Assembly (NCBI GenBank): GCA_973895155.1
Contig: OZ316899.1
Coordinates: forward strand, 11,533,775 to 11,597,774
Length of the DNA: 64,000 nucleotides
Reading direction: 5' to 3'
Source: Marsupella aquatica
Taxonomy: Eukaryota; Plantae; Marchantiophyta
How positions within the stretch are numbered: position 1 is the first letter of the stretch; each line of letters begins with the position of its first letter. A program made the translations under genes and the position numbers. The notes beneath the pieces are model-generated. The model ran no database searches and was not told where the DNA came from. It saw only the letters and a list, made by a program, of their open reading frames with translations. Below are positions 5,072-60,530 of this stretch, one piece after another.

Positions 5072-8000
5072 TGTGGTGCGTCCCATGGCTCCCTAAACCC
5101 AAGAAACCCCCCAGCTCAAGCCGATTCCCGCAGGTTTCGCGCTTGGCGAGGCCGTTTCCGCGGCTTAGCGGCATGGGACGCTGCTAACCTTCTACTACTA
5201 CTATTAACATTTTACACACATATACTGGACAGATCCTTCATCGGGTCATGAGATACGTAGCCGGCCTAATCTAGGCCTTCCCCTGTCTTCCCCTCCGTCT
5301 TGTTAGGTATGTTTGGATTCCGCCGCCGGAATGATCCCCAATAGGCTTGGTTAAGCCGCTAAGACCTCTCTCAGCTCGACACATCCAACTCTCACTCCCC
5401 TGCTTACTTTCCTTCCTTTTGGTTGATGTGGGCACTCTTCACACAAGTTAATGCGACACACAAATAGCAAAATGACTCATTCTGACTGAGTCATACCATG
5501 CACTTGCCATACAAACAGTACATCTCATACACAAGCTCTGCGAACTAAGCCGTGAGGCCAACTCTATTCAGCTCTTGCTTCCACTTCTCCCTCTCTTTGA
5601 TCGTGTCGGCCAACTCTCCCTGCGTCTGAGTCAGTTTTTCCTTGATATTCTGATTATCAGCCTGCGCGGTGTCCAACTGCCCCTGCATGATGTTCAGCTC
5701 ATGCCGTTTAATCCGCAATTCATCTTGGGCTTTCTTGGCCGCCCTTAGATCTTCAATCTCGGCTTCCATCCTCCTAAGCCGCCGAATGACCTCGTCCTTC
5801 TTGCTTCTCTCTAAAACCACCGCTTCTTCTAATTGGTGCTTCTCCAACTGCTCCCTATGGAAAAAGGGTCCTACCTCCAACTCCTCTCCAAAGATGTCGA
5901 GCGCAAGTTCCCCACACATCTCACCATACTCCATGGCTCTATTCTTAGCGTAGGTGGAGTAAGTAGAAGTGATCGGCATCGCCCATCGCGGCCTCTGCTC
6001 CCAAGCCGTCCTGCGGATCTCTTCAATCGTGGCTAGAGGTTTGCTTCCTTTTTCGGCTAGCCGCCTGATGTCCTCCGGCCAATCTCCTCCTGGTAAATCC
6101 TTTTCCCTAGCCAGGGCTGCCTCCTCTTCCTGCCTGATTCGCTCCTGAAATTCCTGCACCGTCTGTTTTATGCCGTCAAAGCTCGGGGGAGCAACATCTG
6201 GTGGGGGAGACTCAGGGCTACTCTGCTGGTTGGGGTCCCCTCGCACTACCCTTGGAAGTGTGGGGACAAACCGGCCACAGGTCCTTACTCCTGGAACGTG
6301 ATGGTCCGACCCATAGCCGGAATTATCATGGCTGCAGTCCTCCACTGCCTCCTCTACTTCTTGGACGTCCGGCTTCTCCCTCTCCTCTTCGTCGGTAGGA
6401 GCTTCAGGCAATTCTGCCTCAGATTCGGAGCTTGAGATTCCCACATACATTCGAACACCTGGCTTGGATTCCGGCCTGATTCTCTCCTTGTCTCCAGCAA
6501 AGGGGTTTTCTCTTGTGAGCCGGTGTAGGCCTACCTCTGTAGTAGTGTCCTGCATTGTTGCCGTTGCCGTTGCCGTTGTTGTTGCCGATGCCGATTTCTT
6601 TTCTTTCTCCAGTAGTTTCAGCAGACTCTGCATGCCTGGTTGCTGCATCGGCAAGTCCTCCTTCCTGGGCCTAAACACCTGCTCGATCGTAGGGCTAACA
6701 GGTGGTTGAGGCTTCTCAGCCAACGGCCTCGGCGTTGGAGCTTCCTCGGGTGCCCTTACCTGCAGGGGAAGTACTGGGGCAAAAGTCTGACCTCTGGCAT
6801 ACCGGCACAACAACGGCATGTGATAGCCAAGCCGCGATACGCTCCCCATGCCGATTACCTGCTGCTCCTCCTTTAAGATCTTCTTCAATTGGTTGAGGAG
6901 GTACCCGTTGTAGTCCCGGCTTGGGTCTGGCCTTTCTGCCAGATAGACCTGTGCTTTGCCGATCTCTGCCCTCGGCAAGTTACAATGCATGGTCACCCGC
7001 AAGAAGTTGATCATCTCTCCTATGTGCGGGTTGGTGCAGGTGTTCCGGAAGAAGCCATTCTTCGTTGATGGCCCGGGGAACGACCGGAACTCCTTGTCAG
7101 GCAAGGTCTTCTTGGTATCAACTTTGGTCTTATTGCCTATCGGCAAGCCAAACACTTCGGCAATTACCTTGGGAGTAAGATAGAAATCCTTCCCATATAT
7201 CCTCGTGCAATTGGTCTCGGGTTCCCATGACCGCACGAATTCTAATAGGTCTGACTCCGGTACCTCCGGCTTCAGCCATGGTAATCTTACAAAGGCCTCT
7301 AAGCCGGATCCGGCCATGAAGCCTTGGTACTTCTTGGTCTGCATGGCCGTAAAGCATGCATCCTCCTCCCGTGCAAAATGTAGTTGCACCTCCACCGGTA
7401 GGGTTGCCGCCCAGCCCTTCCAGGTGTCATCCCTGGTTGGAATGGCCTTGATGGGATCGACCTCCTCCTCTTCGGCTTCTCCCTGCCTCCTGCTCTGCTG
7501 CTCGGCTGGCTTGTTTGGTGCCGCCGACCTCGTTCTTTTTGCCGGGGTGGCTTCATCGTTGACGACTCCCTTCCTCTTCATCTCTGCTGCCGTGGAGGTT
7601 TCTCCTAGCACCGTTGCCTGGGTCCACCTTTCCGTGCTACCCTTTAATTCCCAGTGTATGTCGTTGCAGTTCTTGATGGCCTCTCGGATGCCGACGACGC
7701 TGTCTTTGCAAAACAGAAGATCGTCGAGTTGATTGGAAGTAGGCGTCCACAGGAACTCGTCCTTGATGAGTTCGCCTCCTAAGAAAGCTGTCTTCTGCAG
7801 CTCCCACAATCGAGCGAGCTCCTGCCATTCTCGAGCTGCCCTTTCTGATTCCTCGTCCTCGTAAGTCTTGATGTACTCAGTTGCCCGTTCGAACAGGCAT
7901 CCCCAGAAATGTGCCGCTTGATTGACGTTGCTCATACCCTCCTTAGGTCGATCGTCGGTATCTACTCTCTCCCCGAGTGCTTGCCTAAGCAGCTGACAGT

Positions 8001-8311
8001 AGTTGGCCTCCCGTAGTCGTCTGCCTAGTTCATGCTCGTAAATGAGCCACCATCTCCTGCAAGCGCTCCTTACCCCTCTCCTCTGCCGGTCCTTCTTCCC
8101 GTTGATCCTTCCTAGCCGCCGACGCTTAACGCGCCCTAACCCTAATCGAGTTTTCACCCTCAGCGTCCTTACCTCCGGCCTCGGCCCGGGTTCCATGGTT
8201 GCCCCTAATTGTTTATATTTTCCTTGTTTTGTCCCTATACTAAGGTGTTCCTAGGGTGCCTTCCTGCTTTACCCACTTAACTGGCCGAGTGATTCCTGTC
8301 TAGGCATCACA
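5072..8311 (-). repeat. 3' LTR of element A (3240 bp)
   Basis: Near-identical to 25781-29019; TG...CA termini; abuts the PPT. Confidence 0.95.
5545..8196 (-). CDS. LTR-encoded 883-aa protein (conserved globular domain, acidic/Pro linker, coiled coil); function unknown
   Basis: Uninterrupted ORF lying wholly inside the LTR, with TATAAA just upstream. Homologous to the other LTR ORFs. The true start codon is uncertain. Confidence 0.8.
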   Translation of the reverse strand: MEPGPRPEVRTLRVKTRLGLGRVKRRRLGRINGKKDRQRRGVRSACRRWWLIYEHELGRRLREANYCQLLRQALGERVDTDDRPKEGMSNVNQAAHFWGCLFERATEYIKTYEDEESERAAREWQELARLWELQKTAFLGGELIKDEFLWTPTSNQLDDLLFCKDSVVGIREAIKNCNDIHWELKGSTERWTQATVLGETSTAAEMKRKGVVNDEATPAKRTRSAAPNKPAEQQSRRQGEAEEEEVDPIKAIPTRDDTWKGWAATLPVEVQLHFAREEDACFTAMQTKKYQGFMAGSGLEAFVRLPWLKPEVPESDLLEFVRSWEPETNCTRIYGKDFYLTPKVIAEVFGLPIGNKTKVDTKKTLPDKEFRSFPGPSTKNGFFRNTCTNPHIGEMINFLRVTMHCNLPRAEIGKAQVYLAERPDPSRDYNGYLLNQLKKILKEEQQVIGMGSVSRLGYHMPLLCRYARGQTFAPVLPLQVRAPEEAPTPRPLAEKPQPPVSPTIEQVFRPRKEDLPMQQPGMQSLLKLLEKEKKSASATTTATATATMQDTTTEVGLHRLTRENPFAGDKERIRPESKPGVRMYVGISSSESEAELPEAPTDEEEREKPDVQEVEEAVEDCSHDNSGYGSDHHVPGVRTCGRFVPTLPRVVRGDPNQQSSPESPPPDVAPPSFDGIKQTVQEFQERIRQEEEAALAREKDLPGGDWPEDIRRLAEKGSKPLATIEEIRRTAWEQRPRWAMPITSTYSTYAKNRAMEYGEMCGELALDIFGEELEVGPFFHREQLEKHQLEEAVVLERSKKDEVIRRLRRMEAEIEDLRAAKKAQDELRIKRHELNIMQGQLDTAQADNQNIKEKLTQTQGELADTIKEREKWKQELNRVGLTA

Positions 8312-10274
8312 TAGCTCCCCACTTAATTGTGAAGCGTCCTCGCGAACCACTTCATCTTCGTCCATATAGTATTTCTTGAGGCGGTCATAATGGATGCGAA
8401 CTGGATATACCTCTCCCGTAATGTTGGCCAATTGTACGGAGCCATTGGGGAACATCATGGTTACTCTAAAGGGTCCTAACCAGCGAGTGTAAAGCTTTCC
8501 TGGAAACCTACTATACCTACTGTCATAAAGTAGCACAAGATCACCGGTGTGAATACTAACTACTTTCAACTTTTTATCATACTGCTGCTTCATGATATTC
8601 TGTCTATATTCTACTCTCTCGGCTGAAATCATTCTCGCCTCCTCTAAAGCTTCTAACCTATATTCTCGCTCCTTTAGGCTCTCCTCCGCTGAGGCTCTTT
8701 CCTCAATTGTAACTTGAAATGTCGGTATCTCAAGTTGCATGGGTACCAGGGCTTCTTGTCCAAAGGTTAAGAAGAAGGGTGTATGACCGGTAGTGGATTT
8801 ATAGGCAAGATTGTAAGCAAAAACAGCAGCAAACAATTTACCATCCCAATCGAGTTTGTTCTGAGCTACTGTCTTGTTCAATATCTTTCCTATAATTCCG
8901 TTTGCTCGTTCTGTCAACCCATTTGCCTTTGGATGGTAGGGAGTAGTAGGCCTATGTTTAACTAAATACTGCTCATTTAAACGACTAATTATATCATTCA
9001 AAAAATGGGTTCCTCTATCACTAACTAATTCTAGGGGTGCTCCATACCTGGTGAAGATCTGCTCATACATGAATCTAGCCGTAGTAATTGCATCATCCTT
9101 CGTTGTTGGTCTGGCCTCTACCCATTTAGTTGCATAATCCGTAGCCAGGATTATGTACTTGTTCCGTCGAGGGTGGGTCAGTGGTTTTAGAGGTCCAATG
9201 TAATCAATACCCCACTTCTTGAATGGTGCCAGAGGTAGAATAGGGTGCAGTGGATGTCTGGTGGACGCCCTTGGTCCTCCCGCTCGTTGACAAGGATCGC
9301 ATTGTTTGATAAGTTGATAGACATCCTTGTGCAAGGTGGGCCACCAGTAACCGGCATTTAATATCTTCTTAGACGTGGTTACTGGGGCAAAATGTCCTCC
9401 GGCTTCCTCTCCATGCATGGCCCGTAGGACTCGTTTTACCTCTCCCTTTTCCAAACACCTTTGAATCGTGCCGTTGATTCCATGCTTGTGCAGTATGCCT
9501 TTAATGCACTGATACTGTCTGACCTTCCGCACAAAGACTGCGGCTTGCTCTCGGCTTAATCCTGGCTGTAATCTGGAAGTGCTGAGAAATTGTAAAATCT
9601 CAGGGTACCATGTATCAGCTATTTCCACAACGAATAGCTCCTCGTCGGGGAATCGATCATCGATGCAATCCGTGGCAGGTTTACCTGTGATCCTTGAAAA
9701 GAAGTCGGCATTGGCGTGTAACTTTCCCGGCTTGATCCTCAGCTCATAGTCAAACTCCTGTAATAGCAAAATCCATCTTGCTACTCTGCCTGTAAGGTCC
9801 GGCTTATTGACTAGGTACTTCAAACTTTCATGATCGGTATGAAAGATTACCTTGTACCCTAGTAAATAATGCCTAAACTTTTTACAAGAATAAATGACTC
9901 CTAATGCTTCTCTCTCTGTGGTGGAGTAGTTCCGTTCGGCATCGGCAAGCTGACGGCTTGCGAAGTATATGGGATGGTCCCTTCCTTTCTCATCCAACCG
10001 ACTTAGTACTGAGCCGATACAGAAGCCCGAGACATCTACAAAAACATGAAAATCTTTGTTCCAGTCCGGTGCTATCATGACTGGGGCCTCTACTAACATC
10101 TGCTTCAATTCTACCACCGCTGTGACTCGTTCGGGTGTGGGTTCGAAGTCTGCTCCTGTCTTGAGCATGTTGGTTAATGGTAAAGCTAGCTTGGCAAAAT
10201 CCTTGATGAACCGGCGATAGTAACCAATGCATCCCAAGAAGGATCTTACATCCTTTATGTTCTTAGGTTGCATG
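8300..10274 (-). pseudogene. pol: RNase H and integrase of element A (separated from RT by CACTA1)
   Basis: Motifs VDVSGFCIG, EREALG, FHTDH, GGHF...CDPCQ zinc finger, GIDYIGP, SDRGTHF, ANGLTER and WLGPF. Joins RT in frame after CACTA removal (LDIMQPK). Confidence 0.93.
8312..8328 (-). promoter_or_regulatory. Polypurine tract of element A
   Basis: The minus strand reads AATTAAGTGGGGAGCTA immediately before TGTGATG. Confidence 0.85.
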
Positions 10275-11174
10275 CACTAGTAGAAACCGGGGGTATTTAG
10301 ACCCCATTAAACGACTATTCAATACCGTATAGGACTTGGAAACGACTGGGAAGGACTCTAGTCCTTTATAGGACTGCGAGTCGTATGTTTTGTTACTATA
10401 ATCAACTGAGTCCTTTATAGAACTGGTTTATAAGTCGTTTAATAGACTGGATTTTCAGTCTATTTTAGTCTTTGTGTGGGTAGCTTTGGTGAGTCTTTTT
10501 CAGTCTTTTATGGGCTGCGATGGTGAGTCGTTGGGAACAACTCAAAAGGTTATGGAGGGTAGTCTTTAAATATACTTTGTGGGTTTATAAAATGACTAAA
10601 GTAGACACTTTGTGGGGGTTTATAAAACGACTAAAGTAGACACTTTGTGGGGTATGTACAAGTCTTTCATGTCAACTGGAAATGAGTGATGAAGACCCCA
10701 CTATACTACTTGGAATGAACTCACTCTTGTGCACAAATAACACATTTCATTCATGTTTTATTGTGTACTTGGAATGAACTCACTCTATAAGGTCACCATT
10801 CACCATGTTAACATTAGAACCTCACACAAATTTTCAGAAAGCCATCTTCTATACCATGTACACTAATATGAATTCACAGATTCAAACATCATAGACTACA
10901 AAGAAGGTCACAAAGCATTCGTCTATACCATACACACTAATACTGAATTGATACAAAACAGATTCAAGTATCATAGACAATCACCATAGAGCCATAGTTT
11001 GACATCAATCACTTGTTTCATACATACAGAATTCAGAAATATCAATGTCACACACAACGGCTCCTTCATCCTCTTTACCAAATGGAAAAATTGGTACAGA
11101 TATTTCTTGGATTTTTCCAAGGCAATGTCAAAATGTAACACAATTCACATGATTCTATCTACACTTGTATTCAG

Positions 11175-14100
11175 TCACTGCAGACTAACACACTCTGATG
11201 GCCAGAGCACAAGAGATCCTACTGCATCTGCAATTATTTCTTGAGGTGGATCATCGTCTCTATTCGGAAATGGCAAATTACAATCAGATACAATCACTGT
11301 AGTCAACAACACTACTACATGGTCATCCGGGACCACTTTGCCATGGAATTTAGCATGATCCGGTCGCAAAATGCCTGTACCCACACATACCTACGAGTCA
11401 TTCTCCCATGATAGAAGATTATGGACTGGCTCTGCTGTGGCTATCACCTCCACCTTACCCTGGCTGTTTTTCTTGGCTTTCCTGGGTGGCTTATACATGA
11501 CATTATTCATACCTTGGTTGCGAGTCATGACTTTGGCACGAGTGTTTTGTGCTGGTGATCGAGAATTGGCTACACTCTTCTTCAAAGAATCTGCATCCAT
11601 ATTTGACACTTCCGATTGTGTAGCAGGATTTCCCTGCGACATCATCTCAGTATCTGCTAACATTGTACTTGCTTCAATTGAAGCATCTACAATCTTACTT
11701 GCATCCAATGTTGCTCCCAAGTTTCGACGTCGCTTCACCCTGCTCCCACTTGGTTGAGAGTCTGTCAACTCTGCATCAACTACAATTCAATGCATTGTCC
11801 AACATAAGTGAATCACTCATCACATGTGCGCCATGTACATGTCACCATCCACAAAGTTGTCACTATCTCCTTACCATTATGAACAGCCTTCTTCCCCTTC
11901 TTTGCCATTGCCATATCCTCCATGTCTGCTTCTGCTGATCAATAAACAGACCACAAGATTCAGGTTCAATCTATTAACCACTGAATTGTTTCTCAACAAT
12001 GGTAGGAGAGGAATTTAAAGCATCAGCTTACCTGATACCTCCTTGGCTATGGTCACTGAGGCACTGGGCACATCTTTTTCATTGCTCTTTGAATCACCTG
12101 ATACATCAATCATGATGTCACTTCAATTCCCAGTTTATCCAACCAATTCTTACAGAAAAGATTACCTCCAACCGGCTTAAGCTTCACAAAACTCCATGCA
12201 CTTTTCAAATGTAATGTACTGGATCATAGCAGGTTACCTGTCTCAGCAACCTTTTTGCCATTCTGCTTACCGATTACAGGGTCCAGGTTCTCTGCCTCCA
12301 CTCTTCCTGCATTCAAACCATTCACTCAATTCATGAAAACTTACTTCTAACATTTGAACATAGGACACAATGAACAATGGGCCTCTCTTGTTTCAAAATC
12401 CTCATTGCATACCTGTGTCAGATTTGCCAATTCCCTTTTTTGTTAACAAGGGCACACTTTGTACAATGTTGCCCTCATTGTTTGGTTGGGAACCACCCAA
12501 TTTTTCAATCACAAGCTTGAAATTAGATTCCACTGATGCAAGAAGGTTCGCTACAGATGCCTCCACAATATCCAAACGATCAGCCAATTTACTTTCCACT
12601 CGAGGGAGTCCACACTCTAATGACTTCAACCGTTCAGACATCTTTGTGAGAGTTGTAACAGTTCCCTGTCATAACACAGTTTACATATCTCAGATAATTG
12701 TCCCCAAGAACTGGTTGCTTACTTCCTACTACAATTCTTTCTGATGCTCAAGGCCAAATAGTCACAGAACATATAGAATTACAACATAATCACCTGTTTG
12801 GAAGTCACACTTGTCACCTCACTCCTTTGTTTCATGAACTCCTCTCTCACTTCTTGTGCTGATGGTTCTTCACCTGTCAATTTCTTCTGCAGTCCACATC
12901 AACATACATATGAATGAAACCAAGTGTTGATTGTCAATGAAAATGTAATAATGGTAGCAAGATGATAAGTTTGAGGCTTACTATCAGGCATGTCACTGCC
13001 TTACCAATTGTTCTTTCACTGGAGCATAACTTCCTCTCCCAGCCTGTGAAAGGTGTTTCACTTTGCCTCGAGCATTTGACATCAGTTCACTCTTGCTCTG
13101 TCCAGCCTCCGACATGAACCCTTTGATTAACCGTGTCCATTGATCCAGTTCCAATGATGGGGGTGGTGGCATTCTCCTGTTAGAACCATTGTCTATCCAC
13201 ATCCTTTTCAACCTATGCCTCTCTTGTTTCAAAATCCTCATTGCATAATCTGATATGCAATCTTCAACTGGGCCCTTACCATCATTACCAACATAGTCCC
13301 ACCGTTCAAGAATGTCCTTGCAGATAGCAGCCCAATCAGCTTTGTTCTGACTCCTAAACTCTGTAATGCTCAAATCTAACCAACGCAATACTTCTCCTCT
13401 TAGGTCAGAATGCCAACGGTTCTTACCATCACATGTGGGAGTTATCCAACCTTCGGAATTCACTTCTACTTTACCAAATTTGTTACTGTCTCCTGCCTTG
13501 GTACTCCCTGAAGCGCTACTAGGTGTCCCTCCACGGCCTGGTGTCCCCCCACGGCCTGGGGTCCCTCCACGGCCTGATCTCCCCCCACGGCCTGGATTGC
13601 ATTGTCCAAACCTCCCTGGAGTCCCTGCACATTTACAGGATCCATTTACAGTCACTTACATTAGGTAAGTATGAATCATAAATCCTGCTGCCAAATATAC
13701 ACTGGACTTCAGAGCAATTCTGCAATGACCAAGTTACCTCTCCCTTGGCGCATAGATGGTTCTGGACCACCTGTCCTATTGCTTTGTCTTGATGAATTAG
13801 GGCCGTTTCTCCCGCCTGTGAATGATTGCCGCCTATCTGAACGTGGATGGCCTTTGTTGTTTTCGTGATTGTCCCAATCAGAGTCTGCATACCAACAGGT
13901 ACATGCCACACTCATGGACCTGTAAGATAAACTCTTTGCCCTAGCTACACATCAGATAAGTCCATATTGAGCTAAATCTCTACTACCATCACAAAATCAC
14001 TAGCACAAGGCACTTACTTGTCCAATCATCCTCCTCACCTGTCCATTGCCCTCTGTACCCGTCTCTACCACGCTCTGGGTGTTCATATTCATCCCATCCA

Positions 14101-14360
14101 TCTTCTGCTCCATCATAGTCATCATCATAATTATCAGGCGTCCCTTGCCAATAACTCTGGCTCCTTCTAGGGTATGGATTATGTGATTTCTCTCTAGCTG
14201 CCCACCTACCTGGGACTTGATGAGGGCCCTGTGCATCCTGCACAGGTGCATTTTTCTGTGAGCCCCCTGCATCTGGGTCTCCATCCATATCCAATCTTTC
14301 CTCTTCACCCCACTCTCCAAGCCCCATGTCTGTCTCCATGTCATCACCCTCTTCCCCCAT
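11175..14360 (-). CDS. TnpA/Tnp1-like second gene of CACTA1, multi-exon; boundaries uncertain
   Basis: Lies downstream of the transposase. The blocks KNRWHSDLRGEVLRWLD and LPFPNRDDDPPQ...GSLVLWP recur in CACTA2. Confidence 0.55.
13520..13600 (-). repeat. 18-bp tandem repeat (about 4 copies) encoding GRGGTP
   Basis: CCACGGCCTG(G/A) units at an 18-bp period. Confidence 0.8.
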
Positions 14361-14537
14361 AGCTTCTGCACAGCACCCACAACCAAACAGGGAGAATCAG
14401 CACACTAAATTCAAAGTATCAATCAATTTCATGCATATCCAACTATCCTAAACATCATTCCAGGCAGCAATTCCCGTTCTGTGACTCTGTGCAGGTAGTC
14501 ATCCTCAACCTCATACTTGCCAATCGCCAGCTGTTGC

Positions 14538-17500
14538 CTATTGCAAATCATCAACCTCATCATATTCCATTTGCCCAGGTTCATCATATGTCTCTCTCAA
14601 TGTTAAGGGGATGTAGTCAGTCCCTGCCCGAGTTGGAAGTACAGTCTCATGACTAGGATGCTCGAATGCAGCATGGTCATCCAAACTGAACTCTACTTTA
14701 CTTCCATCCATCCGCCTGTTCCGTGCTTGGCTATGGCATACCACCCTCCAGCCATGTGACTCCTCCACATCTGCAAAGAAAGCCTGTTCAACTTGGCTAG
14801 GGAAAACAAAAGGCTCAGACCATTCTGGTACTCTGGACCTAAAATTGGCCAACAAGAACCCATCATGATCACGCTTCATGGTGGCCCTTGGTCTCTGCCA
14901 CTCTGATTTCACCCATGATCCCTTCATCAATATCACTGGGACACTTGTGTTACCATAATTCAACACCCAAATGTCGGTCAACTCCCCCACGTAACCCATC
15001 TTCATCCACCCCCTCTGTTCTTCAGAGGTTCTCTGCTCAAACACAGAAATCAAACCACAATCATATGATACACAATGGTCACCCTGCTCATCCCTCACTC
15101 GATAATGATTTCCATAAGCTCTCATCCGTTTGTAGGTCAGAATAGACAATCGTGGTGGCACAGATAGAAGATACAAATCCTTCTCCATATCTGGGTGATG
15201 TCTACTATGCTCTCGAATTGTCACCCGAATCCACTGCTCGAACTGTGGGAAGGGATCCTGCTGCCCAGAGTGTGCAGCTTTTTGCATATCATATTCCCTG
15301 CAATATGAGGTACAGGCATAGTTAGGTCTAAACAACACATGACAACCTAAGATCACCCTTGGAACAGACAAGAAGCATCACAACAAAGGCAAGTCAATTC
15401 AATCACTCACCTCCACCATGGTTGCATAGGCTCTGTGTTTGCCAGCACATATGAATGAGCCTTGTCTCGAATCGCAACAGGCAGCTGAACAGCACGTCCC
15501 ACACCTTCAACAACCTCGCCACTCACTCCATCATCTTCACCAGATTTCCAAACTCTTGTCATAGCTTCACGAGACCCAGCCATGTACTCTGTTAGGAATC
15601 CCAACGTCTCATCCTTAATGTACCCCAATGCCATGGAAGCCTCTGGCCTGTAGTATGTTCTCACATGACCTTTCAACAACTTCATGTATCGCTCCATAGG
15701 GTACATCCATCTGGTACTGACTGGCCCATACTGCCCTAGCTCTTCTACCACATGGATTAGGAGATGAGTCATAACATCAAAGAAAGCAGGGGGGAAGTAT
15801 ATCTCCAAGTCACAGAGGACATAAGCAGCATCCTACTTCAACTGCTCCAATCCTTGGGGATCCCACACTTTCACACATATACGGCGAAATACATTGCACA
15901 GTCGAAGAATGACATTACGGACTGGTTTCTGCATGAGACCTCTGAGGCATAGGGGCAGAATGTGCTGCATCAACACATGGTAGTCATGTGTTTTCATACT
16001 GCCAAGTTTATTCTTTGTAATATGCTTCTTGAAGGCACCAGCATAGCCAGAGGGCACTTTCAGACAGCTCAATCTATACAAGAATGTCTTCCATTCATCC
16101 TGTGTGCACACATAGGGAGCTTGGAACTTGAGAAGTACATTGGGATTGCTTGCATGGGGCTTCAACCAAAGGTGAGGGCGAATCCCCTTCTGTTGCATAT
16201 CAGCTCGAACTGCTCCTGTATCTTTCTCACCCGACAAGAACTTCAGCAAGCTCTCACAAATATTTTTCTCAATGTGCATGACGTCCACATTGTGTTTGCT
16301 GGGCTCGAATTCCTGCACTCCACAAAGCAAAGAATTCAACAACAGAAACACTAATTAACCACATAGGAGGATTGTAACCAACATCAATCCACCATTGCTC
16401 CAATCTAAAATTGCAATCATACAGGGGCTGGAGGCTAAGTACATTACCCTCCAGTACTCCAACTCCAAGTCCATCAAGGTCTGTCTTTTCACACCGTGTT
16501 TCACCACTGGATCCTCAGGTTCTCGATCAGTGGCACTTCTCTTGTCCCAATCAGCCTTCCTGGCTGCCCACCTCAGGACTTGCTCTCTGGTGACCCTCTG
16601 TGGTGGGCCACGAAGCTCTGTTTTGTTGTTGAAGTGTGCAATTTGAGACCGTGTGTGCCTGTAAGGATGATCAACAGGCAGATACCTTCTATGCCCCTGA
16701 AATTTCATACTGTGCAGGGCATGCGACCACTCACTTGTCACATTTTTCCCACATGGTGTGCACCCCACATAGCCCTTTGTCACTCGTCCAGATATGATGC
16801 CATGGCCTGGGTAATCTGCTATATCCAGCAAACAAATTGCATGCAGTCTAAAGGGGCTGGGTCGAAGAAGCCCCTTCAGAACATCATGGGTTAACACCCC
16901 TTCTATCCACAAAGTCTTCCACTCTTCCACTGCTGGAGCCAACATGATATCTATGAATTGCTCGGTCACAGAAGCTGGTCCAGGGATTAACAGCACCATC
17001 ATGACAAAAAACCTCTTTGTAGTCATCCATGGGGGAAGGTTGTAATTTAGCAGCGTAACCGGCCAACATGAATAACGGTTGTTTTTGTCTCCAAATGGGT
17101 TTACTCCATCCAGTGATAGACCAAATCGAAAGTTCCGCTTCTCTGCAGCAAACTGTGGCCACCTCTCATCAACAAATTTCCAATGGTTGGAATCTCCAAT
17201 GTGACGCTGCAGGCCATCACTGCTCTTGTTATCAGGAGTCCATGTCATCAGCTTGGAAATGGCAGGGCATCTAAACAGACGTTGTAGTCTAGGAATGAGA
17301 GGAAAATGACGAAGAACCTTGGCAGGGTGTGTACATTTCCCTACATTCTTGTACCTGTGCTTACCACAATGAGGGCATGTCAATTTATCTGCATGCTCTT
17401 TGCGAAAGAGAACACACCCATCAGGGCATGCGTCAATAGACACATAGTTCAGCCCAAGGTTAGACATCAATTTCCTAGCCTCGTACATATTTTTTGGAAT

Positions 17501-18250
17501 TGAATTACCATCTGGTAACACATTTCGGCGCAGGAAGGTCAACAACTCTGTCACAAATATATTGGGAACATTGTGATTGCCACAGATGTTCAACAACAAC
17601 ACGACAAAACCCAGCTTGGAGCAGTTCGACCCCTCGTAGATAGGAATGCAAGCTTCTTTGATGTGTTTTGGGCCCCCAAACACCCACTCCCTCTCTGCTG
17701 CACCTTCCCCAATGTCAAAGTCAGGTTCAGCTTGGCCGTCGCCAATGTGTGGCTGCGGTTCATTGTCCTCTTCTGATTCCACTGTGTCGTAAAAAGCATC
17801 AAGGTCTTCAAAAATCTCTTGAACCATTCTTGGGACATCCATCCCACCGTCCTCAGTGACTGCCTCTGCATCTCCATCTTGGTCATCCACGTTCTCATGT
17901 TGGACCCCAGGACCATCCTCTGCACAGTCTATGTCCTGCTCTACGTAGTCTCTACGCCTAGCTGTATTAGAATCCACAAAGTCAGCTCTCCACTCTTCAT
18001 CAGAGGAGTCTTCTTCTGCTGGTACATTCCAAACCCTCCACCGAGGGTGCCTTTCATGCCGCAGCAGGTGAAGGTGCACAGTGTTCAAACTCAATGACTT
18101 GAATCCTTGGCACTGTGTGCATGGGCATCTCATCCTCCTACTCCTACCTTGGGCGGCCCGGGCTTGTTCACGCATCCACAATTTAGAATCATGATGCCTA
18201 ATCCTAAATGGGTTGTGAAGAGGCAACCTTGGAGCCATCACTATACACAC
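14538..18250 (-). CDS. TnpD/Tnp2-type CACTA transposase, spliced (approximate exons 18250-16450, 16310-15840, 15810-15410, 15300-14538)
   Basis: Motifs MRCPCTQC, IDACPDGCVLF, LDGVNPF, YNLPPW, DYPG...GCTPC, DVMHIEKN, MKTHDYH, RWMYPMERYM and EPFVFPSQVEQAFF. Exon limits are approximate. Confidence 0.88.
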
Positions 18251-25711: not shown

Positions 25712-25756
25712 TACCTACGCTTCCGTTCTAACTTCATATCTCACGGCTTAAGAAAT

Positions 25757-25776: not shown

Positions 25777-25780
25777 AAAA

Positions 25781-43880: not shown

Positions 43881-44311
43881 TAACTAACAAGATGCTGCAT
43901 CACATCACCAACTACAATGTCACAAACTAAGCAAGGTGCATATGTGTAGTACTTGTGACGCCGCCGGTACGGCGGTTAATGAGTGATTCAGTCTAACTGC
44001 GCTCGGCACGCGCGTTAGGTGGGTCTTAGGCCGCTATTATTAGCATAACGACAGTATTTAGGTAATCATTAGGGGTAGGACATCATTAGGCAATAAGGGG
44101 GACTTCAGGTTCGGGCTGGCGGCGGGTCGCTATTCGCACACCCGGGTTACGAGCGTGGAGGGGCCCCTCCCTCGGGTCCGTATAACGAACTTAAGGAAGC
44201 GGCCATTGACGCACGCTGACTCAGACCGGCGGAGTGGCCGGTACACCACAAGCGTGAGCGGTTCAACCTATGGGCGTCGAGGAGACGTCGGGGATCGACA
44301 AGCCCTCAAAG

Positions 44312-44318
44312 TATAAAA
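44312..44318 (+). promoter_or_regulatory. Candidate TATA box in the C LTR (mirror copy at 57448-57454 on the minus strand)
   Basis: TATAAAAGGGG about 100 bp upstream of the LTR ORF, followed by a CT-rich leader. Confidence 0.55.
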
Positions 44319-44419
44319 GGGGAGCCAACCCTTTGTAGTGCACCAGTCCATCAGTCCGCGCGCCAGCTTCGACCCCAGCTCTCTCGTTCTCTCTAGGTCG
44401 CCACTACTATCTCCTCTGA

Positions 44420-47708: not shown

Positions 47709-47726
47709 TGGCGCTAGATGGAGGGG
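47709..47726 (+). promoter_or_regulatory. Primer-binding site of element C (probably tRNA-Asn)
   Basis: TGGCGCTAGATGGAGGGG, nearly identical to the PBS of element A. Confidence 0.8.
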
Positions 47727-47819
47727 GCACTCTACATATCGTAGAGGGGAGACATGTGCGTATTCACCTAGGCAGGATACATCAGGACGTAGTACTAACC
47801 ATTGCATTTATATGAGTAA

Positions 47820-50800: not shown

Positions 50801-53800
50801 TCCGCAATTGGAGGAAGTAAACCCCATCCCGAGACCAATCCCGGTCCCACCCATGTACGGAGGGGTTCGGTTAGCTGAGCTTGACGCGAGCTTGGACCCG
50901 AGTCTGCAAAACCAGGTTGAAGTCATCAGGAAGGAGCACTACCGGAAGTACACTATTGGGATGGACAAATCTTTTAACCTGGGCCACGCTCTGACGGGGA
51001 AGGCTGAAAAATCCATCCAAGCTTTGCTCAAGGAATATGAAGATGTGTTTGCATGGAGTCATCATGATTTAACAGGCGTCTCCCCCGAGTTGGGAGAACA
51101 CACAATCGATCTGAACCTAGGAGCCCATGCGGTACGACAGCGACAACGTCGCATGAATCCGAGGTACTCCATCTTAGTAAAGGAGGAAATTGATCATCTC
51201 CTCGCCGCCGATATCATTTACCCGGTAATGGCCAGCGACTGGGTCTCTCCCATTGTCATTGTACCAAAGAAGGGAGGTACGGATGGAAAACCTAAGATTC
51301 GTATCTGTCAGGACTACCGTAAGCTGAATGACGCAACCCGAAAAGACCATTACCCATTACCATTCACGGATATGGTTCTAGATATGGTGGCCCGAAATGA
51401 AATCTATACATTTCTTGACGGGTATTCAGGTTATAACCAAATCTGGATTCGTCTCGCGGATCAGCTCAAAACAACTTTCACTACGGAGTGGGGAACGTTC
51501 GCATTTCGGAGGATGCCTTTTGGTCTGTGTAACGCCCCGGCTATGTTTCAGCGCCTTATGATGAATATCTTCCACGATTTCCTACGGGAATTTTTGGAGA
51601 TATTTATCGATGACTTTGCCATCTTCGGAACCGTTGCCATGCACCCCGAACACCTACGACAAACGTTGCAACGATGCCGAGATGTTAACCTCAAACTACA
51701 TCCCGCCAAATGCTTCTTCGGGGTAGAGGAGGGGGTGTTACTCGGGCATCGTGTGTCCAAACGGGGCATTGAGGTGGACCAAGGGAAAGTTGCGGCCTGG
51801 ATGGCGGTGGTGTTCCCCTTGGATCAAAAAGCAGTACGATCCTTCTTGGGCTGCGTAGGGTATTACCGCCGGTTCATTAAAGACTTTGCTAAAATTGCGT
51901 TGCCCTTAACTGAGATGATGAAGAAGGACGCAGCGGTCGAGGAGACACCCCGAAGACGGATTGCTTTTGAGGAACTCCGTAAACGACTCACCACCGCGCC
52001 TATCATGGTCACCCCAGACTGGAATAAGGAGTTCCACGTGTATGTCGATGTGTCAGGGTTCTGTATCGGATCCGTACTTAGTCAGCTAGATGAGGATGGA
52101 TGATCACCCCATCTATTTCGCTAGCCGTCAACTATTTGCAGCCGAAAAGAATTATTCCCCCACTGATCGAGAAGCTTTGGGAATAATCTACTCGTGTAAA
52201 AAGTTCCGACACTATCTGCTAGGCTACAAGGTCATTTTCCACACGGATCATGATAGCCTGAAGTACATGGTCAACAAAGCGGATGTGATAGGACGGATAG
52301 CCCGGTGGGTGCTACTTCTCCAGGAATTTAATTACGAAGTTTGGGTTCGGCCAGGAAGGGTACACCTCAATGCCGATTTCTTTTCACGACTGGACGGCGT
52401 ACCAGTCGATCAGCCAATTGATGATATTTTTCCGGATGAGGAGTTGTTCCACGTGGGGGAAGGGACACCAATGTGGTACGGCTCAATAATCACCTTCCTT
52501 TTAACGGGCCGCATCCCTGACGGCATCAATCAGGAGGCCGCCGCTGTGTTTTTACGGAAAGCCGGGCCTTACGTCATGATACAGGGTCACCTACATAAGG
52601 AAGGTATTAACGGAAAGTTACGACGCTGCTTAGAGTATAAGGAGACACTTATCGTGATACGGGCCCTGCATGAAGAAGAAGCTGGAGGCCATTTCGCGGC
52701 AGTTACGACAGCCCGAAAGATTCTGGACTCGGGGTATTGGTGGCCTACGTTGCATCGGGATGTACAGCGCTTCATTAAGGGCTGTGACTTGTGTCAGCGA
52801 GCGGGGGCCCCGAGGCGGGCTCATCATCACCCGCTCACATCTGTGCTTCCATTGGCACCATTCGAAAAATGGGGAATTGATTATATCGGACCGTTCACTC
52901 CCGTTACCCGAAGGCGAAGGTGCAGGTACATCCTATTAGCTATTGATTACTCCACCAAATGGGTCGAAGCGCGGGCTACGGTAAAGGACGACGCCGCAAC
53001 CAGTGCCAGATTCTTATACGAACAGATTTTCACCCGATTCGGACCGCCCTTAGAATTGGTAAGCGACCGTGGAACCCACTTCCTCAATGACACCGTAGCC
53101 CAGCTTACGGAGCGTTACCTAGTCAAGCACCGCAAGACTACCCCATATCATCCTAAAGCCAACGGGATGGCGGAGAGAGCAAATGGTATAATTGGGAAGA
53201 TCCTCAACAAAACTGTAGCTGCGCACAAAACGGATTGGGATGATAAGTTGTACGCGGCGGTGTACTCGTATAATCTAGCTTACAAAACTACTACGAGTCA
53301 CAGCCCGTACTTTCTGGTGTTCGGCCAACATTCGTTGGTGCCCGTCGAATTTGAAGTGCACACTCCACGGGTCAGCATTCGGGATCGCTTACCTGAATCT
53401 GAAAGTCTGTCAGACCGAGCTTATCAGATTGAAGCCTTGGAAGAAGCACGGCTACTGGCAGCTCGACACACCGTGAAGAAACAGGCAACTTCGAAGAAGC
53501 AGCACGACAAAGGACTACGGAGGGTCGACATCGTGGCAGGCGATCTAGTCCTTCTGTACGATAGTAGGTACATGCAGTTTCCAGGGAAGCTGCATACCCG
53601 GTGGTTGGGGCCCTTCCTTGTCAATCAGATCTACCGAAACGGATCTTTGGAGCTTGCGACGTATGCCGGCGATTTACTCCCCACGCGAATCAGCTACGAT
53701 CGTGTAAAAAAGTACCACCATCAAGATGACGACGTCGATAGCGATGTTTGCGAGGACGCTTCACAATTAAGCAGGGAGCTATGTGACAAAGGCTATGTCA

Positions 53801-53808
53801 CGTCGTAG
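47820..53808 (+). pseudogene. Gag-Pol polyprotein of element C (three CCHC knuckles, PR, RT, RH, INT) with one frameshift near 52095
   Basis: ORF 47820-52103 has VDGGAGVN and FIDDF; ORF 52090-53808 has GIDYIGP, SDRGTHF and WLGPF. The break falls where element A reads LDEKGRDHPIYF, consistent with a 2-bp loss. Confidence 0.93.
53765..53781 (+). promoter_or_regulatory. Polypurine tract of element C
   Basis: AATTAAGCAGGGAGCTA before TGTGAC; matches the PPT of element A. Confidence 0.85.
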
Positions 53809-56800
53809 GCTTCGGCCTTAACTCAGACTTCAGCTTAGACGGGCACATCCCTCCTAAATCTGAGGGTTCGGGCAGGAAGGGAAGCACGTAATGCACCTTA
53901 TTCTCGTAAACTAGCGCTAAGTGCGCATACTGCTAAATACGAACACCTCCTAGGTATGGTTTGTGTTCCGCCGCCGGAACGTACCTTAGTCGATAGCAGG
54001 ATCGACCCCGGCTTAAGGGCTTCTAAGCCTTCGTGCTGTCCGCCTTCGATCCGGATTCGATGATACAGGTCCTCAACCCATGCTCGCAACCACTTACCCG
54101 CAGGCTGCACCCTGTGCACGTCTCGGGTAGTGTGTTCGGCCTGGCGCTGCCACCCATATACGAGAAACCCACACACATATGCGCACACATGCATACAATC
54201 TCGATTTACACGAAGGAAAATGGTGGGAAAGGATTTTACTACAAAGGGAACATATGCGTACACTTAGTTGACACGGCAGCCCTGGAATGCACAGGTTCAA
54301 GGCCGAGGGTGCACACTACAACGGAGCCTGGCTCCGCACTCGCCCGGCGAGCTTAGTCCTACCCCCTCCCCTTGGTACTCTGTCATTCCCAGAGGTCGGG
54401 ACTCCCCGCATGTCCCGTGGATGTCCGACTCTGAAACTAAAAACCCCCCTGCCTCTACCGAGGGGTGCACTAAATACTAAGAGCCGAGGAACGGGGTGTC
54501 CTCTCGCCGAAGATTCGCTGACTAAGGTCCTAACTAAGCTGACAGTCAGGCCGGAAAACGGCTGTGTCTTATTAGAAGATCCTAATTTACGCAGGCTAGA
54601 CAGCAGGACAGCGCTGCTGTACCTAAGGCAGGTGCTTGTCCCAAGAGCCTGACTAAGCCAATCCTAATCCTAATCTATTCCTACTCCGCCGCTAATGCCT
54701 GGCACGCTTGCCAGAGCCGCCCGAATGGGAACGGCCATCCCGCTGCCTTCGAAGCCTGTCATTGTCCGCCTTGAGGAGCTGGACCTGGTCCAGCAGAGAT
54801 TCGTTCTCTCGCCTTGCCGCGTCCGTCTCCTCTACTGCCTCCTGACATGCCTCCTCCAGCTGCTGGGCGTCGCTCGTCAGTTTACTCGCCAGCTGGTCCT
54901 GCTTCTCGGCCTCGGTTTGGAGCCGTGCCATCTCGGCCTGCAGCGTGGCTATCTCCGTCGCGTCCCGCTGGGCTCGCTCCTCGGCCTCCTCCAGGTCTTT
55001 CTGCCAGGTGACAGCTTGTTTCTTCAAACTGTCAATCTGGTTCCGGAGTCGTGTAATCTCGGCCTCGTTCCCAGCTTTGGCCTGTTCGGCTAGGGCGGTA
55101 AGAGCGTACGCCTTTGCTAACAACTCATCGGCGGCTGCAACCTTGGGTCGTAGTTGCAGAAGCTCAGCCTCTTGAGCCGCCACTTCGTTCTTTAGGTACA
55201 CGGACTCCACCCGGTACCGCTCTATCCTCTGAAGGGCCTCCGACTGGGCCCGACCTGCCTTTACGGCGGCAACCAACTCCTGATTGAAGAAACAGGCTAC
55301 CTTCCGGGCCATGAACTCCCCGGTATCTTGGGCAATTTGATGAGAGAAATCTCCCAGAAGCCCGTTCAGAAACGTACCCTGTACGAAGAGTTCCGGGTGG
55401 TCCAAGTTGTGCCTGTCCGGATTTGGGCACGGGCAGACATCAACACGCGCAGGGGCCGGGGCAGTGACGTCCAGCCCTGGGGACATAACGTTGGAAGGGG
55501 CTGGAGTGTCCTCCTGCAGCGATGTCCGGTTCTCCGGAATTGCCACCGGCGGGTCCTTGGGAGACCCGGGTTCGGGTAAGACCTCTGCCGTACCAACTTC
55601 TGTACTTAGCCCGGCTAGTTGGGTCGCATCAACGGTTGCGACGACCGACCCCTCCGGCGCCTCCTCGGTTACGATTACAACTATTTGTGGAGGTGGGGTG
55701 GGTGAAGCTGGCGTGTCCACTGGACTTCGGGCCTCGGGTTGGGGCCGTCTCTCCAATGCCGGAAAAACCCACCTAGCTGGGACCAGCTTTGTAACGTTGA
55801 TGCGGGGAAGGGTTCGTCGATCAAACCGGGCGTACCACTCAAGAATGATTTCGATGTGGCTAGCGAAATACGCCTTCCCGCCAATGTACAACGTCTTCCT
55901 TCGCCGCTCCATCTCTTCATGGAATTTCTTAGCGAAGTACGACGCCCATTTCCTAGGTCGATAGTTCTCGACCTGGATAACCTGGGCGGCGGAGATCTCC
56001 CCCCGGGGTTCCATCATGTGGAGAGCGTACCTCTGGAACTCCAGCCGCTCAGCTATCTCGGGCATGAGGCAGGTCCTCATCACGAACCCATTGTCTACTG
56101 ATCCCTCTGAGGGAAAACTTGAAGATTGGTACTTGGCCCCCTTGCCCCCGGGAGCCCGTGATTCGACTCGATGGTCACCTTCGGGTAACCCGAAGATCAT
56201 CTTGAGCCGTCCTTGTGTGAGGGACATATTCCTTCCCCGCAGCCGAGTCTGTTGACGTACGTCGTCATAATTCTTGACGAATTCTGTCATGTCCTCCCCG
56301 TAGTACCTGCAAGTGTTCCAGGGGAGAGAGGCGAGGTGCTCAAATCCCTGAGTCTTCAGGTACACCACATGCTTGGGATGGAGGATGTTGCTGTGAACGT
56401 TTTCCCCCATGCGATGCATCGTCACCTTGGCTACGGCTACCGTGGCCAACGGTAACCCAGATGCAGTGGCGGATTCCTTCCTCTTCTTTCCCCGTGACTG
56501 ACTCGGGGAAGGTGATACTTCCCCATCCTCCCGATCGGGCCTGGGGAGTGCCACTGCGGTTGGTAACGGGCCCGGGGCGGCCACGATCACTATGTTGTCT
56601 GCTGGGGCCGCTCCTGGGGTCAGAGCAGGGGGTGGGGATGATATAGTGTCGGCCCTCCGAGCGCTTGTTCCTCTGGGCCGCCTGGTCAAGGGTGGGGTAG
56701 CCTCGTCGTCATCGCTAAGATCCACAGCGTTGATGACGGAGCGTACCTGTGCTGGCTGGGTGATAGGTGGTGGGGTTTGGCTAGGCTGCGGCTGAGGCTG

Positions 56801-57812
56801 AAGCTGAAGCTGAGGTTGAGGCTGAAGCTGAGGTTGCATGGGCACGGGTACGGGTACGGGCCCGGCTGAGTTGGTCATGTTGGTTGATGGCCGAGTTCCC
56901 ATGAAGCTCTGCAAGTGCTGGTAGAAGTTCTCCGAAGCGAGTGCGGACGCCCTTGTCGAATGGTTGGTACTGGACTCGCCGTTAATGACAGCCCGAACCT
57001 GGGCAGGGATGTGGTCGAAGTGATGTCGCTGCAGGTCGATTGTACCCGGGATATTGAAGACCTCGTCCGGAAGCCGAAGCAATGCTTCCCAGAACCCGAT
57101 ATATTTGTCTCCGTTGAAGAAGTACCCAGATACCTCAGCTGGTCGGTAAAGCTCGCTCTGAGACGGGTAGTCAAAGTTAAGGACGTAGTGGTGTCGTCCT
57201 GCTAGGCGGATGGCTCTCTCGTATTCGCGTTCGATCTCGTATCGGCGCGGGTTGGCGTGTTTCAATGAATCGGCCAAGTGCCTTCCGGTAGATAGGAACT
57301 GCGTCCAGAATCGAATGGCCGAGCTGGAGAGGATCGTGTGCGACATTCAGAGGAGATAGTAGTGGCGACCTAGAGAGAACGAGAGAGCTGGGGTCGAAGC
57401 TGGCGCGCGGACTGATGGACTGGTGCACTACAAAGGGTTGGCTCCCCTTTTATACTTTGAGGGCTTGTCGATCCCCGACATCTCCTCGACGCCCATAGGT
57501 TGAACCGCTCACGCTTGTGGTGTACCGGCCACTCCGCCGGTCTGAGTCAGCGTGCGTCAGTGGCCGCTTCCTTAAGTTCGTTATACGGACCCGAGGGAGG
57601 GGCCCCTCCACGCTCGTAACCCGGGTGTGCGAATAGCGACCTGCCGCCAGCCCGAACCTGAAGTCCCCCTTATTGCCTAATGATGTCCTACCCCTAATGA
57701 TTACCTAAATACTGTCGTTATGCTAATAATAGCGGCCTAAGACCCACCTAACGCGCGTGCCGAGCGCAGTTAGACTGAATCACTCATTAACCGCCGTACC
57801 GGCGGCGTCACA
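53782..57812 (-). repeat. Right arm (inverted LTR, 4031 bp) of element C
   Basis: A complete LTR TGTGACGCC...CTTTGTCACA on the minus strand, starting exactly at the PPT. Confidence 0.93.
54692..57346 (-). CDS. LTR-encoded 884-aa protein of family C (full length)
   Basis: Open ORF mirroring 44420-46798, with the whole coiled coil present. Confidence 0.82.
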   Translation of the reverse strand: MSHTILSSSAIRFWTQFLSTGRHLADSLKHANPRRYEIEREYERAIRLAGRHHYVLNFDYPSQSELYRPAEVSGYFFNGDKYIGFWEALLRLPDEVFNIPGTIDLQRHHFDHIPAQVRAVINGESSTNHSTRASALASENFYQHLQSFMGTRPSTNMTNSAGPVPVPVPMQPQLQPQPQLQLQPQPQPSQTPPPITQPAQVRSVINAVDLSDDDEATPPLTRRPRGTSARRADTISSPPPALTPGAAPADNIVIVAAPGPLPTAVALPRPDREDGEVSPSPSQSRGKKRKESATASGLPLATVAVAKVTMHRMGENVHSNILHPKHVVYLKTQGFEHLASLPWNTCRYYGEDMTEFVKNYDDVRQQTRLRGRNMSLTQGRLKMIFGLPEGDHRVESRAPGGKGAKYQSSSFPSEGSVDNGFVMRTCLMPEIAERLEFQRYALHMMEPRGEISAAQVIQVENYRPRKWASYFAKKFHEEMERRRKTLYIGGKAYFASHIEIILEWYARFDRRTLPRINVTKLVPARWVFPALERRPQPEARSPVDTPASPTPPPQIVVIVTEEAPEGSVVATVDATQLAGLSTEVGTAEVLPEPGSPKDPPVAIPENRTSLQEDTPAPSNVMSPGLDVTAPAPARVDVCPCPNPDRHNLDHPELFVQGTFLNGLLGDFSHQIAQDTGEFMARKVACFFNQELVAAVKAGRAQSEALQRIERYRVESVYLKNEVAAQEAELLQLRPKVAAADELLAKAYALTALAEQAKAGNEAEITRLRNQIDSLKKQAVTWQKDLEEAEERAQRDATEIATLQAEMARLQTEAEKQDQLASKLTSDAQQLEEACQEAVEETDAARRENESLLDQVQLLKADNDRLRRQRDGRSHSGGSGKRARH

Positions 57813-58835: not shown

Positions 58836-60530
58836 TGTGGTGCGTCCCATGGCTCCCTAAACCCAAGAAACCCCCCTGCACAAGCCGATTCCCGCAGGTT
58901 TTGCTCTCGACGAGGCCGGTTTTGCGGCTTAGCGGCATGGGACGCTGCTAACTCTCTTCCACTAACATTTTACACACATATACTGGACAGATCCTTCATC
59001 GGGTCATGAGATACTAGCCGGCCTATTCTATGCCTTCCCTTGTCTTCCTCTCCTTATCTTTAGGTATGTTTGGATTCTGCCGCCGGAATGATCCCCAACT
59101 GGCTTGGGTAAGCCGCCAAGACCTCTCTCAGCTTGACACATCCAACTCTTACTACCTTGCTTACTCCCTTCTCTTGGTTGATGTGGGCAATCTTCAAACA
59201 AGTTAATGCGACACAAATAGCAAAATGACTCCTTCTGACTGAATTATACCATGCACTTGCCATACAAACAGTACTTCTCATACACAAGGTCTGCGAACTA
59301 AGCCGTGAGGCCAACTCTATTCAGCTCTTAGGCATGAGGAAACATGAATATACACAAGGGTCACTTTATAACTAACCGAGAGCTTCTTTTACTACTTGAT
59401 CCCAGCCCTACTGGTGCACTAAAAACTTGCTAAAGAAGAAGGCCCTGAACTCCCTGTTGCCCAGGTACTTATCCTGGCAGTGGATCCGCCTAATTCCTTG
59501 CAGCATAAGCCTAATCTATCCTAACTATAATCTACCTATGTACAGCAAGGCAGGAGCTCAAGTGTTGCTCTTACCAGTGGATCCGCAATCCCACTAATCT
59601 AAATGTTAGGGCCGCCTCTTGGTCCTTATCCTAATTCTAAACTTGGAGATCTGAGCCCGCCTTGCCCACTCATGCCTCCTCCCTCCACGTCTGCCCTCCT
59701 TAAAAGGAGTGGCCCTCCACCACCATCATGGTAGCGGTGGCTGATCCTCAATGGACGCCCCCAATGCTTCCTCCGCAACCACTGCCGTGGGTCCGTCCTC
59801 TGACAGATTACCTACCCCAGACCCAATCAACTCACCCGCGGCCTGACCGGGTCCACCCTCGGCTTCGGCCTCAGCATCGGCCACGGCCTCTAATACGGCT
59901 ACGGCCTCCCTGACATGCTCTAGTGGTGGATCCAGTACCCCGGCTTCATCACTGAGTGTCTTGTCCTCGGCTTTGCCATCCCCACCTTCTAGGGCAGTTG
60001 GATCCTCTGCCGTGACCTTGCCTGCGGTTGGTGCCGGGTTTACCTCCTTGGTCACGACGGCTTGAGAAGCCGCATTACTCCCTGATCTAGAAGGTTTCCG
60101 CTTCTTCTTCTTCCCTGGTTCGGCAGCTGGTCCCTTCCCCTTGCCACTTAATTCCGACACTAGTGCGAGTGTTGCGGCTTGTCCCTCGGCCAGTACTACT
60201 CCTGGCAACTTGGGTGCCCCAATTGGAGTTGGACTTGATGAAGCCAAGCACTTAAATACTACGGCTTGTTTCTTTAGCCGCTCCGTTTGGTTGTCGGCTC
60301 GCCGCTGTAAGTTCTTCATCTTCCTTGTGCTTTCCTCCAACTCCTCTTGCACTTCATCCAGGTCCTTACACGCCTCCTCCAGCTCCTTTTGGGCTTCCTC
60401 CAACTCTTTTTGGGCTTCCTCCAACTCCTTCTTTAAGGTAGCCCTCTCCTCCTGGGTTGCTCTTAGCTCCTTGTCAAGCTCCATTACAACCTCAAACTCC
60501 ATTTTATTCATCTTGGCATAAGTCTGAGCT
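58836..60530 (-). mobile_element. Fragment (3' 1.7 kb) of another long-form family A LTR (A''), including the end of the LTR ORF (59726-60526)
   Basis: Starts TGTGGTGCGTCCC; colinear with 31890-33581; encodes QTYAKMNKME...ASIEDQPP. Confidence 0.9.

Follow-up and report, generated by a model that had tools for sequence, protein, structure and literature searches.

What is a long protein-coding gene doing inside the long terminal repeats (LTRs) of a retrotransposon, and is it a gene at all? The question is raised by a 64-kb stretch of the liverwort Marsupella aquatica (contig OZ316899.1, hereafter the window), a nest of plant transposons (Pfam scan, 31 frames) in which two Gypsy families, A and C, have LTRs of 3.2-4.6 kb. 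A first-pass annotation had described a homologous gene lying wholly within the LTRs of both families. We find that a conserved protein-coding gene, a real LTR gene, almost certainly resides there, and that it is an accessory gene under purifying selection. Its 800-1,100 codons occupy most of the LTR, and from its place there it would be duplicated at every transposition. Our preferred reading, to which we give a probability of about 0.5, is that the core of the protein has a VANC/DUF1985/plant-mobile-domain (PMD) fold and that the protein would bind a family-specific dispersed word and counter host silencing. The LTRs and genes in question are, in window coordinates:

5072..8311, minus strand: 3' LTR of element A, 3,240 bp, TG..CA ends
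25781..29019, minus strand: 5' LTR of element A, gene copy broken
5003..5071, plus strand: solo LTR A', first 69 bp, separated from the rest by the insertion of A
29025..33581, plus strand: solo LTR A', remainder (about 4.6 kb of LTR in total)
43954..47706, plus strand: 5' (left) LTR of element C, target site duplication (TSD) GTACT at 43949-43953
53782..57812, minus strand: right LTR of element C, inverted relative to the left LTR, TSD GTACT at 57813-57817
58836..60530, minus strand: 3' fragment of an A'-type LTR, C-terminal gene remnant at 59726-60526
5545..7935, minus strand: LTR gene of A, 796 aa counted from Met88, the likely start
7597..7935, minus strand: N-terminal domain of A, codons 88-200, common to C and 11 homologues
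6757..7386, minus strand: core domain of A, codons 271-480, predicted VANC/DUF1985/PMD-like fold
44420..46798, plus strand: LTR gene of C, left copy, 792 aa
54692..57346, minus strand: LTR gene of C, full-length copy, 884 aa

All six LTR pieces reported in the first-pass annotation are present, and the peptides it quoted for A and C are found in the translations. A long open reading frame (ORF) is enclosed by the TG..CA ends of A and of the solo LTR and is likewise contained in both arms of C, so that it is LTR-resident in each case. The description of six copies with a long sense ORF or its remnant is right as to the pieces, but the frame is open in only three of the six, the A 3' LTR and both C arms. 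In the A 5' LTR the copy is disrupted by a 1-nt deletion and a stop (codon 549), the A' copy (29332-32670, about 1,112 codons) is interrupted by four stops (codons 49, 658, 684 and 845) and a short pair of frameshifts, and the fragment at 58836-60530 holds the C-terminal part of the gene only. As to orientation, the ORF of the right C arm is sense to its own LTR but antisense to gag-pol because the arm is inverted. The 800-1200 aa first given for the gene become 796 aa in A, 884 aa in C and a span of about 1,112 codons in A'. Compared with A', both A LTRs carry a 1.4-kb deletion with microhomology at its ends that shortens the C-terminus of A. The left C copy has a 270-bp in-frame deletion inside the coiled coil; 884 aa is likely the form of the C family because contigs of two runs (X1 and X3) end loosely at this deletion and carry the missing letters. 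The C protein consists of the N-terminal domain, a low-complexity linker, the core, another linker and about 200 aa of coiled coil.

The A and C proteins had been said to align although their LTRs do not align as DNA. The protein alignment is confirmed by BLASTP (E 4e-19, 52/185 identical, 28 %) and by a Smith-Waterman score of 210, where the maximum over 300 shuffles was 80. At the DNA level the claim is correct apart from the LTR ends, except for one shared element of about 29 nt. Homology extends to a second domain, about 115 aa long, at the N-terminus: against a profile of the C N-terminus and 11 homologues, A from Met88 onward reaches 19.3 bits, a score attained by 0 of 1000 shuffles. This domain (7597-7935 and 56970-57346, both minus strand) is kept in A, in C and in the 11 homologues, four of them named Calypogeia.

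Selection on the gene, which the first-pass annotation had proposed, is evident from the ratio of nonsynonymous to synonymous substitution rates (dN/dS) between A and A', 0.24 overall (confidence interval 0.19-0.31, 772 codons). By region it is 1.00 for codons 1-87, 0.18 for 88-200, 0.40 for 201-270, 0.13 for 271-480, 0.33 for the linker and 0.27 for 691-876. Between A' and the fragment at 58836-60530 the coiled coil gives 0.24 and the tail 0.65. The upstream ATG at 8196 thus opens 87 codons that evolve neutrally, and since Met88 also aligns with Met1 of C, the A gene likely starts at 7935 (Met88) and not at 8196. Within the LTR pairs dN/dS is 0.69 and 1.12, values that rest on few differences and are near neutral, as expected after insertion.

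A profile of the four window cores matched 73 proteins at E<=0.001 among 1.84 billion. Among 20 of these matches that were looked up, 10 came with a species: seven Calypogeia fissa, two Riccia sorocarpa and one Orobanche minor, the last being marginal (E 3.9e-4). Several long homologues share the layout of core, linker and coiled coil. A second search with a 64-row alignment including two Riccia rows returned 85 proteins, all from Riccia sorocarpa, many of them carrying DDE_Tnp_4 and some automatically named 'plant mobile domain'. In Riccia sorocarpa models (P0060, P0062 and others) the core domain occurs with pieces of a DDE_Tnp_4 (Harbinger-type) transposase, and a DNA transposon family may carry the core domain too.

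The closest solved structure to the core of the LTR protein is VANC21 (PDB 9LNK), an anti-silencing factor, at 8 % identity. On its predicted structure the core probably belongs to the VANC/DUF1985/PMD group. The best Foldseek row is BFVD entry A0A890CAY5, an 805-aa protein of the viral database (E 0.0099, probability 0.84, TM 0.34). The window cores match no Pfam family, and the cut-offs of PF20167, PF09331 and PF10536 were not reached. In a Pfam scan of 51 homologues three match Transposase_32 and one matches DUF1985, all below cut-off. The earlier suggestion of a PF20167-like domain therefore finds some backing in these four sub-threshold matches and in the fold group, but not in the window cores themselves. 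A C-terminal coiled coil is predicted and basic clusters resembling nuclear localisation signals (NLS) are present. No membrane segment was found, the highest 19-residue hydropathy being 0.72 in A and 1.33 in C, which leaves the previously suggested role in particle movement unsupported. The anti-silencing role, also suggested, gains specific support from the predicted fold together with family-specific words.

The short motifs recognised by VANC proteins vary from family to family (PMC5735166; here and below, cited sources are represented by the parts available to us). We looked for enriched words using shuffles that preserve protein and codon usage. The coding DNA of A contains 73 [AT]GCCG where 30.3 are expected (0/300 shuffles); the excess is independent in the LTR gene and in gag-pol and is found on both strands, and the top A 5-mers surpass the family-wise null maximum. 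There is no excess of this word in C (35 vs 44.0), nor in the frames of CACTA, copia and D (8 vs 19.0). Per kb, the longer form WWGCCG is found 5.6-11.4 times across five regions of the A family, 1.8-2.0 times in C and 0-1.6 times in five further regions. For C the top 4-mer is GTAC, with 52 occurrences against 31.7 expected (z 4.8, null maximum 4.4); A shows no excess of GTAC (19 vs 21.6), and no longer C word exceeds the null maximum. A family-specific short word is thus clear for A and weaker for C.

5072..33581, both strands: dispersed word WWGCCG, A family 5.6-11.4 per kb vs 0.47 in the nested CACTA
43954..57812, unstranded: dispersed word GTAC, 5.3-6.7 per kb in C vs 0.9-3.6 in ten other regions

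Flanking bases do not lengthen the A word into a longer fixed site. Tandem arrays like those of VANC targets were not found, the words being dispersed and mostly coding, and among repeated 7-9-mers in the non-coding LTR parts none was significant. Copies of the A motif are identical in A' in 19/30 cases, vs 129/367 for overlapping 6-mers containing CG. The gag of a third Gypsy element, D, which shows no LTR gene within the window, has a cluster of three AAGCCG (3994-4132).

As a trace of methylation, the observed/expected CpG ratio is 0.64-0.71 in A and 0.88-0.95 in C, compared with 0.26-0.43 in CACTA, copia, D and the region at 40-43.9 kb, and transitions between A and A' are equal over CG, CHG and CHH; the replicating lineages of A and C thus look little methylated. 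A ratio of 0.66 is also found at 61-64 kb, a region without the gene. Mismatches within the LTR pairs are enriched 3-6 times at CG and about 3 times at CHG. This pattern would fit an anti-silencing activity limited to one stage. Several points weigh against the anti-silencing reading: by these mismatches the resident copies were evidently methylated after insertion, plain youth and fast turnover would also account for the pattern, and the motif shows no significant conservation at fourfold sites (p 0.21 and 0.13).

How would the gene be expressed and copied? The LTRs contain the following candidate signals:

8212..8217, minus strand: TATA-like box of A, putative function, LTR position 95, upstream of the gene
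44312, plus strand: TATA-like box of C, putative function, LTR position 359, upstream of the gene
5304..5331, minus strand: element of about 29 nt in the A 3' LTR, 255 nt from the LTR end

If genomic RNA began at the TATA-like box, its strong-stop DNA would have to be about 4 kb long, and for this reason we infer that the gene lies in U3 with its own promoter. The element that A and C share, about 29 nt long, lies towards the 3' end of their LTRs and scores 41, a value reached by 0/300 shuffles. It consists of a 5-bp inverted repeat with a fixed 4-nt loop followed by an A/C-rich tail, recurs at 26013-26040, 33327-33354, 47513-47541, 53951-53979 and 59061-59088, and is possibly an R/U5 replication signal or a host-factor site. 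TTAG, which we take to be telomere-repeat-like, is enriched on the sense strand only in the non-coding parts of the A and C LTRs (19 vs 8.4 and 21 vs 8.0, 0/100 shuffles each).

We propose that the gene sits in U3, where a TATA box of its own, close to the LTR start, would drive it, and that reverse transcription copies it into both LTRs. Solo LTRs would retain the complete cassette and could act in trans. The protein would oligomerise, bind the word of its own family and keep replicating copies under-methylated or otherwise open. The arrangement may go back to an extra ORF of Athila/Tat type that lay between pol and the 3' LTR and was absorbed when plus-strand priming shifted to the integrase end. 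Self-targeted anti-silencing or activation has about an even chance. We hold more tentatively the broader proposition that a Gypsy lineage of non-seed plants may carry a VANC-like anti-silencing protein in its LTRs, co-evolving with a word spread through its own genes, so that every LTR, solo ones included, would be a family switch.

The same protein could bind the DNA of its own family and repress it, either as a copy-number brake or by compacting chromatin like the host proteins MAIN/MAIL1. Host PMD proteins do function in silencing of transposable elements (PMC5418596), the copies here were methylated after insertion, and a gene present in every LTR copy would produce a signal proportional to copy number. 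We nevertheless consider repression unlikely: the solved structure nearest to the core belongs to an anti-silencing factor, CpG depletion in A and C is milder than in neighbouring DNA, and MAIL1/MAIN have been reported to oppose Polycomb silencing (10.1101/2024.09.27.615353). It is also conceivable, if doubtful, that the protein anchors the integration complex on chromatin or shields the cDNA, the words then being host-factor sites or a mutational footprint. An integrase without a chromodomain, A-family copies nested in each other, a long coiled coil that could serve as the tether and the non-significant fourfold-site conservation all agree with this. The words, though, differ between families whose proteins are about 25 % identical, as co-evolution of protein and site predicts, and the A word is not part of a longer fixed site.

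An env-like or movement protein for particle spread between cells would suit the sense orientation, the place right behind pol in the 3' LTR and the long coiled coil; it is made very improbable by the low hydropathy, the NLS-like clusters and a fold match to a DNA-binding protein. Scarcely credible is a captured, functionless ORF that has stayed free of stops by chance because the LTR is GC-rich. Half of the six copies are broken, A transposed while carrying the deletion that removes its C-terminus, and dN/dS within LTR pairs is near neutral, but neutral decay after insertion is normal for any retroelement gene, and a chance ORF is already contradicted by dN/dS of 0.13-0.24 between sublineages, by two domains kept between A and C and by the 73 homologues.

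How much of this is known? Gypsy extra ORFs with a PMD-group domain and a coiled coil are; their placement inside the LTR appears to be new. The extra ORFs of Ogre, Retand and Athila (PF10536, PF04195 Transposase_28, PF03078 Athila ORF-1) are alike in the probable PMD-group domain, the coiled coil and the proposed DNA-binding role, but they are internal, that of Retand being antisense and between pol and a 3' LTR of 315-1,194 bp (PMC6317226, PMC11963269, PMC5418596). The gene described here is sense, inside both LTRs and solo LTRs, with no spacer between pol and LTR. The VANC proteins of Arabidopsis VANDAL elements (PMC5735166, PMC13547354) resemble the LTR protein and its element in the predicted core structure, the coiled coil and the family-specific short word. 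They differ in being carried by Mutator-like DNA transposons rather than inside a Gypsy LTR, in having tandem targets in non-coding DNA rather than words dispersed in coding DNA, and in being described as dicot-specific, whereas named homologues here come from liverworts. Core identity is 8 % and the DUF1985 cut-off is not reached here, and binding and demethylation, known for VANC, are for the LTR protein only proposed. The host PMD-C proteins MAIN/MAIL1/MAIL2, which work against Polycomb silencing through DNA motif modules, belong to the same structural group (10.1101/2024.09.27.615353) but are host genes, and the LTR protein gave no PF10536 sequence match. An anti-silencing role for PMDs borne by transposable elements has been proposed (10.1101/2024.09.27.615353, PMC5418596), and in the literature available to us the function of Gypsy extra ORFs (PMD, Transposase_28, Athila ORF-1) is left as 'unknown, may bind DNA'. 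A literature search aimed at ORFs within the LTRs of plant or liverwort elements and at retrotransposons with VANC-like genes, covering mostly listings and few subscription journals, did not find the layout, and the available parts of PMC12859917 and PMC12885004 add nothing on its novelty. Two diverged proteins with two different candidate words offer a direct handle on the function of these extra ORFs. Among retroviruses, sag of mouse mammary tumour virus and nef of human immunodeficiency virus are protein-coding genes in U3 that are copied into both LTRs; the layout is alike, and the proteins are unrelated and much shorter.

If the anti-silencing reading is true, LTR retrotransposons possess VANC-type self-recognition, and solo LTRs are gene cassettes rather than dead ends. 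The system would be older than dicot VANC and a candidate source of the PMD/VANC domain; the PMD/VANC group would date back to liverworts, which bears on the direction of descent between host MAIN-like genes and elements, and further sequence-specific chromatin-opening proteins could be expected. Annotation tools with short LTR limits or an assumption of non-coding LTRs would miss or mis-call such genes.

Element C (43954-57812, two arms 98.9 % identical) has inverted LTRs, yet its 5-bp TSD, primer binding site (PBS) and polypurine tract (PPT) are intact and both outer ends are U3 ends. The left arm has the ancestral orientation because its start matches that of A at 8/9 bases, because it has the shared element (about 29 nt) towards the PBS end, like A, and because contigs of three runs span the LTR-PBS junction (6, 6 and 1 contigs). 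That junction (47690-47712) has no terminal CA beside the PBS, and the contigs agree with it apart from one extra T. Read in LTR sense, the CA end of the inverted right arm is supplied by four bases behind the PPT. A template switch in plus-strand synthesis leaving two U3 ends would account for the intact TSD. The inversion is likely such a one-off event, and its presence throughout the C family is improbable.

The Pfam scan gives the order gag, protease (PR), reverse transcriptase (RT), RNase H (RH), integrase (INT) in the frames of both A and C. Element A has the complete set of direct LTRs, TG..CA ends, PBS, PPT and TSD. A negative chromodomain search in both integrase frames, which stop at the LTR start, speaks against a chromovirus. 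Tat (TatI-III, Ogre, Retand) does not fit either: there is a single RNase H, no additional RNase H (aRH) was found, and about 98 aa separate the RNase H end from the integrase zinc finger. Phygy/Selgy, with a TSD of 4 bp (NCGN in Phygy; PMC6317226 file 5), was rejected as the three TSDs here are all 5-bp. The domain set is that of a non-chromovirus without aRH, with a 5-bp TSD as in Athila.

The remaining parts of the two elements are:

8300..10276, minus strand: RNase H-integrase part of A pol (Pfam scan)
10275..23098, unstranded: CACTA DNA transposon in the RT of A, used as a control region
23098..25714, minus strand: gag-protease-RT part of A, broken (Pfam scan, translations)
47709..47726, plus strand: PBS of C
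47820..53808, plus strand: gag-PR-RT-RH-INT of C, overlapping frames 47820-52103 and 52090-53808

Element D holds the solo LTR A' (TSD GCCAC at 4998-5002 and 33582-33586), A' holds the full element A, and CACTA splits the RT of A. The A LTRs are 99.2 % identical and flanked by the TSD ACCTT (5067-5071 and 29020-29024); the distances within the A and C LTR pairs are 0.008 and 0.011. The integrase frame reaches the LTR start in both families, and in A the first base of the 3' LTR lies 12 nt before the integrase stop, immediately behind the PPT. The PBS of A (25759..25776, minus strand), presumably of tRNA-Asn type, begins 4 nt past the 5' LTR; no tRNA gene occurs within the window.

Contigs span DNA of the C family, LTR gene included, in runs that bear the labels of three organisms (30/30 bins each) and, to a small share, in a fourth; the best-covered run may be the source sample and depth does not equal copy number. 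In C pol the RNase H is interrupted by the frame overlap at 52090-52103. Contigs from three sequencing runs carry a 2-nt insertion at 52100, and the window copy of C probably has a break at this point.

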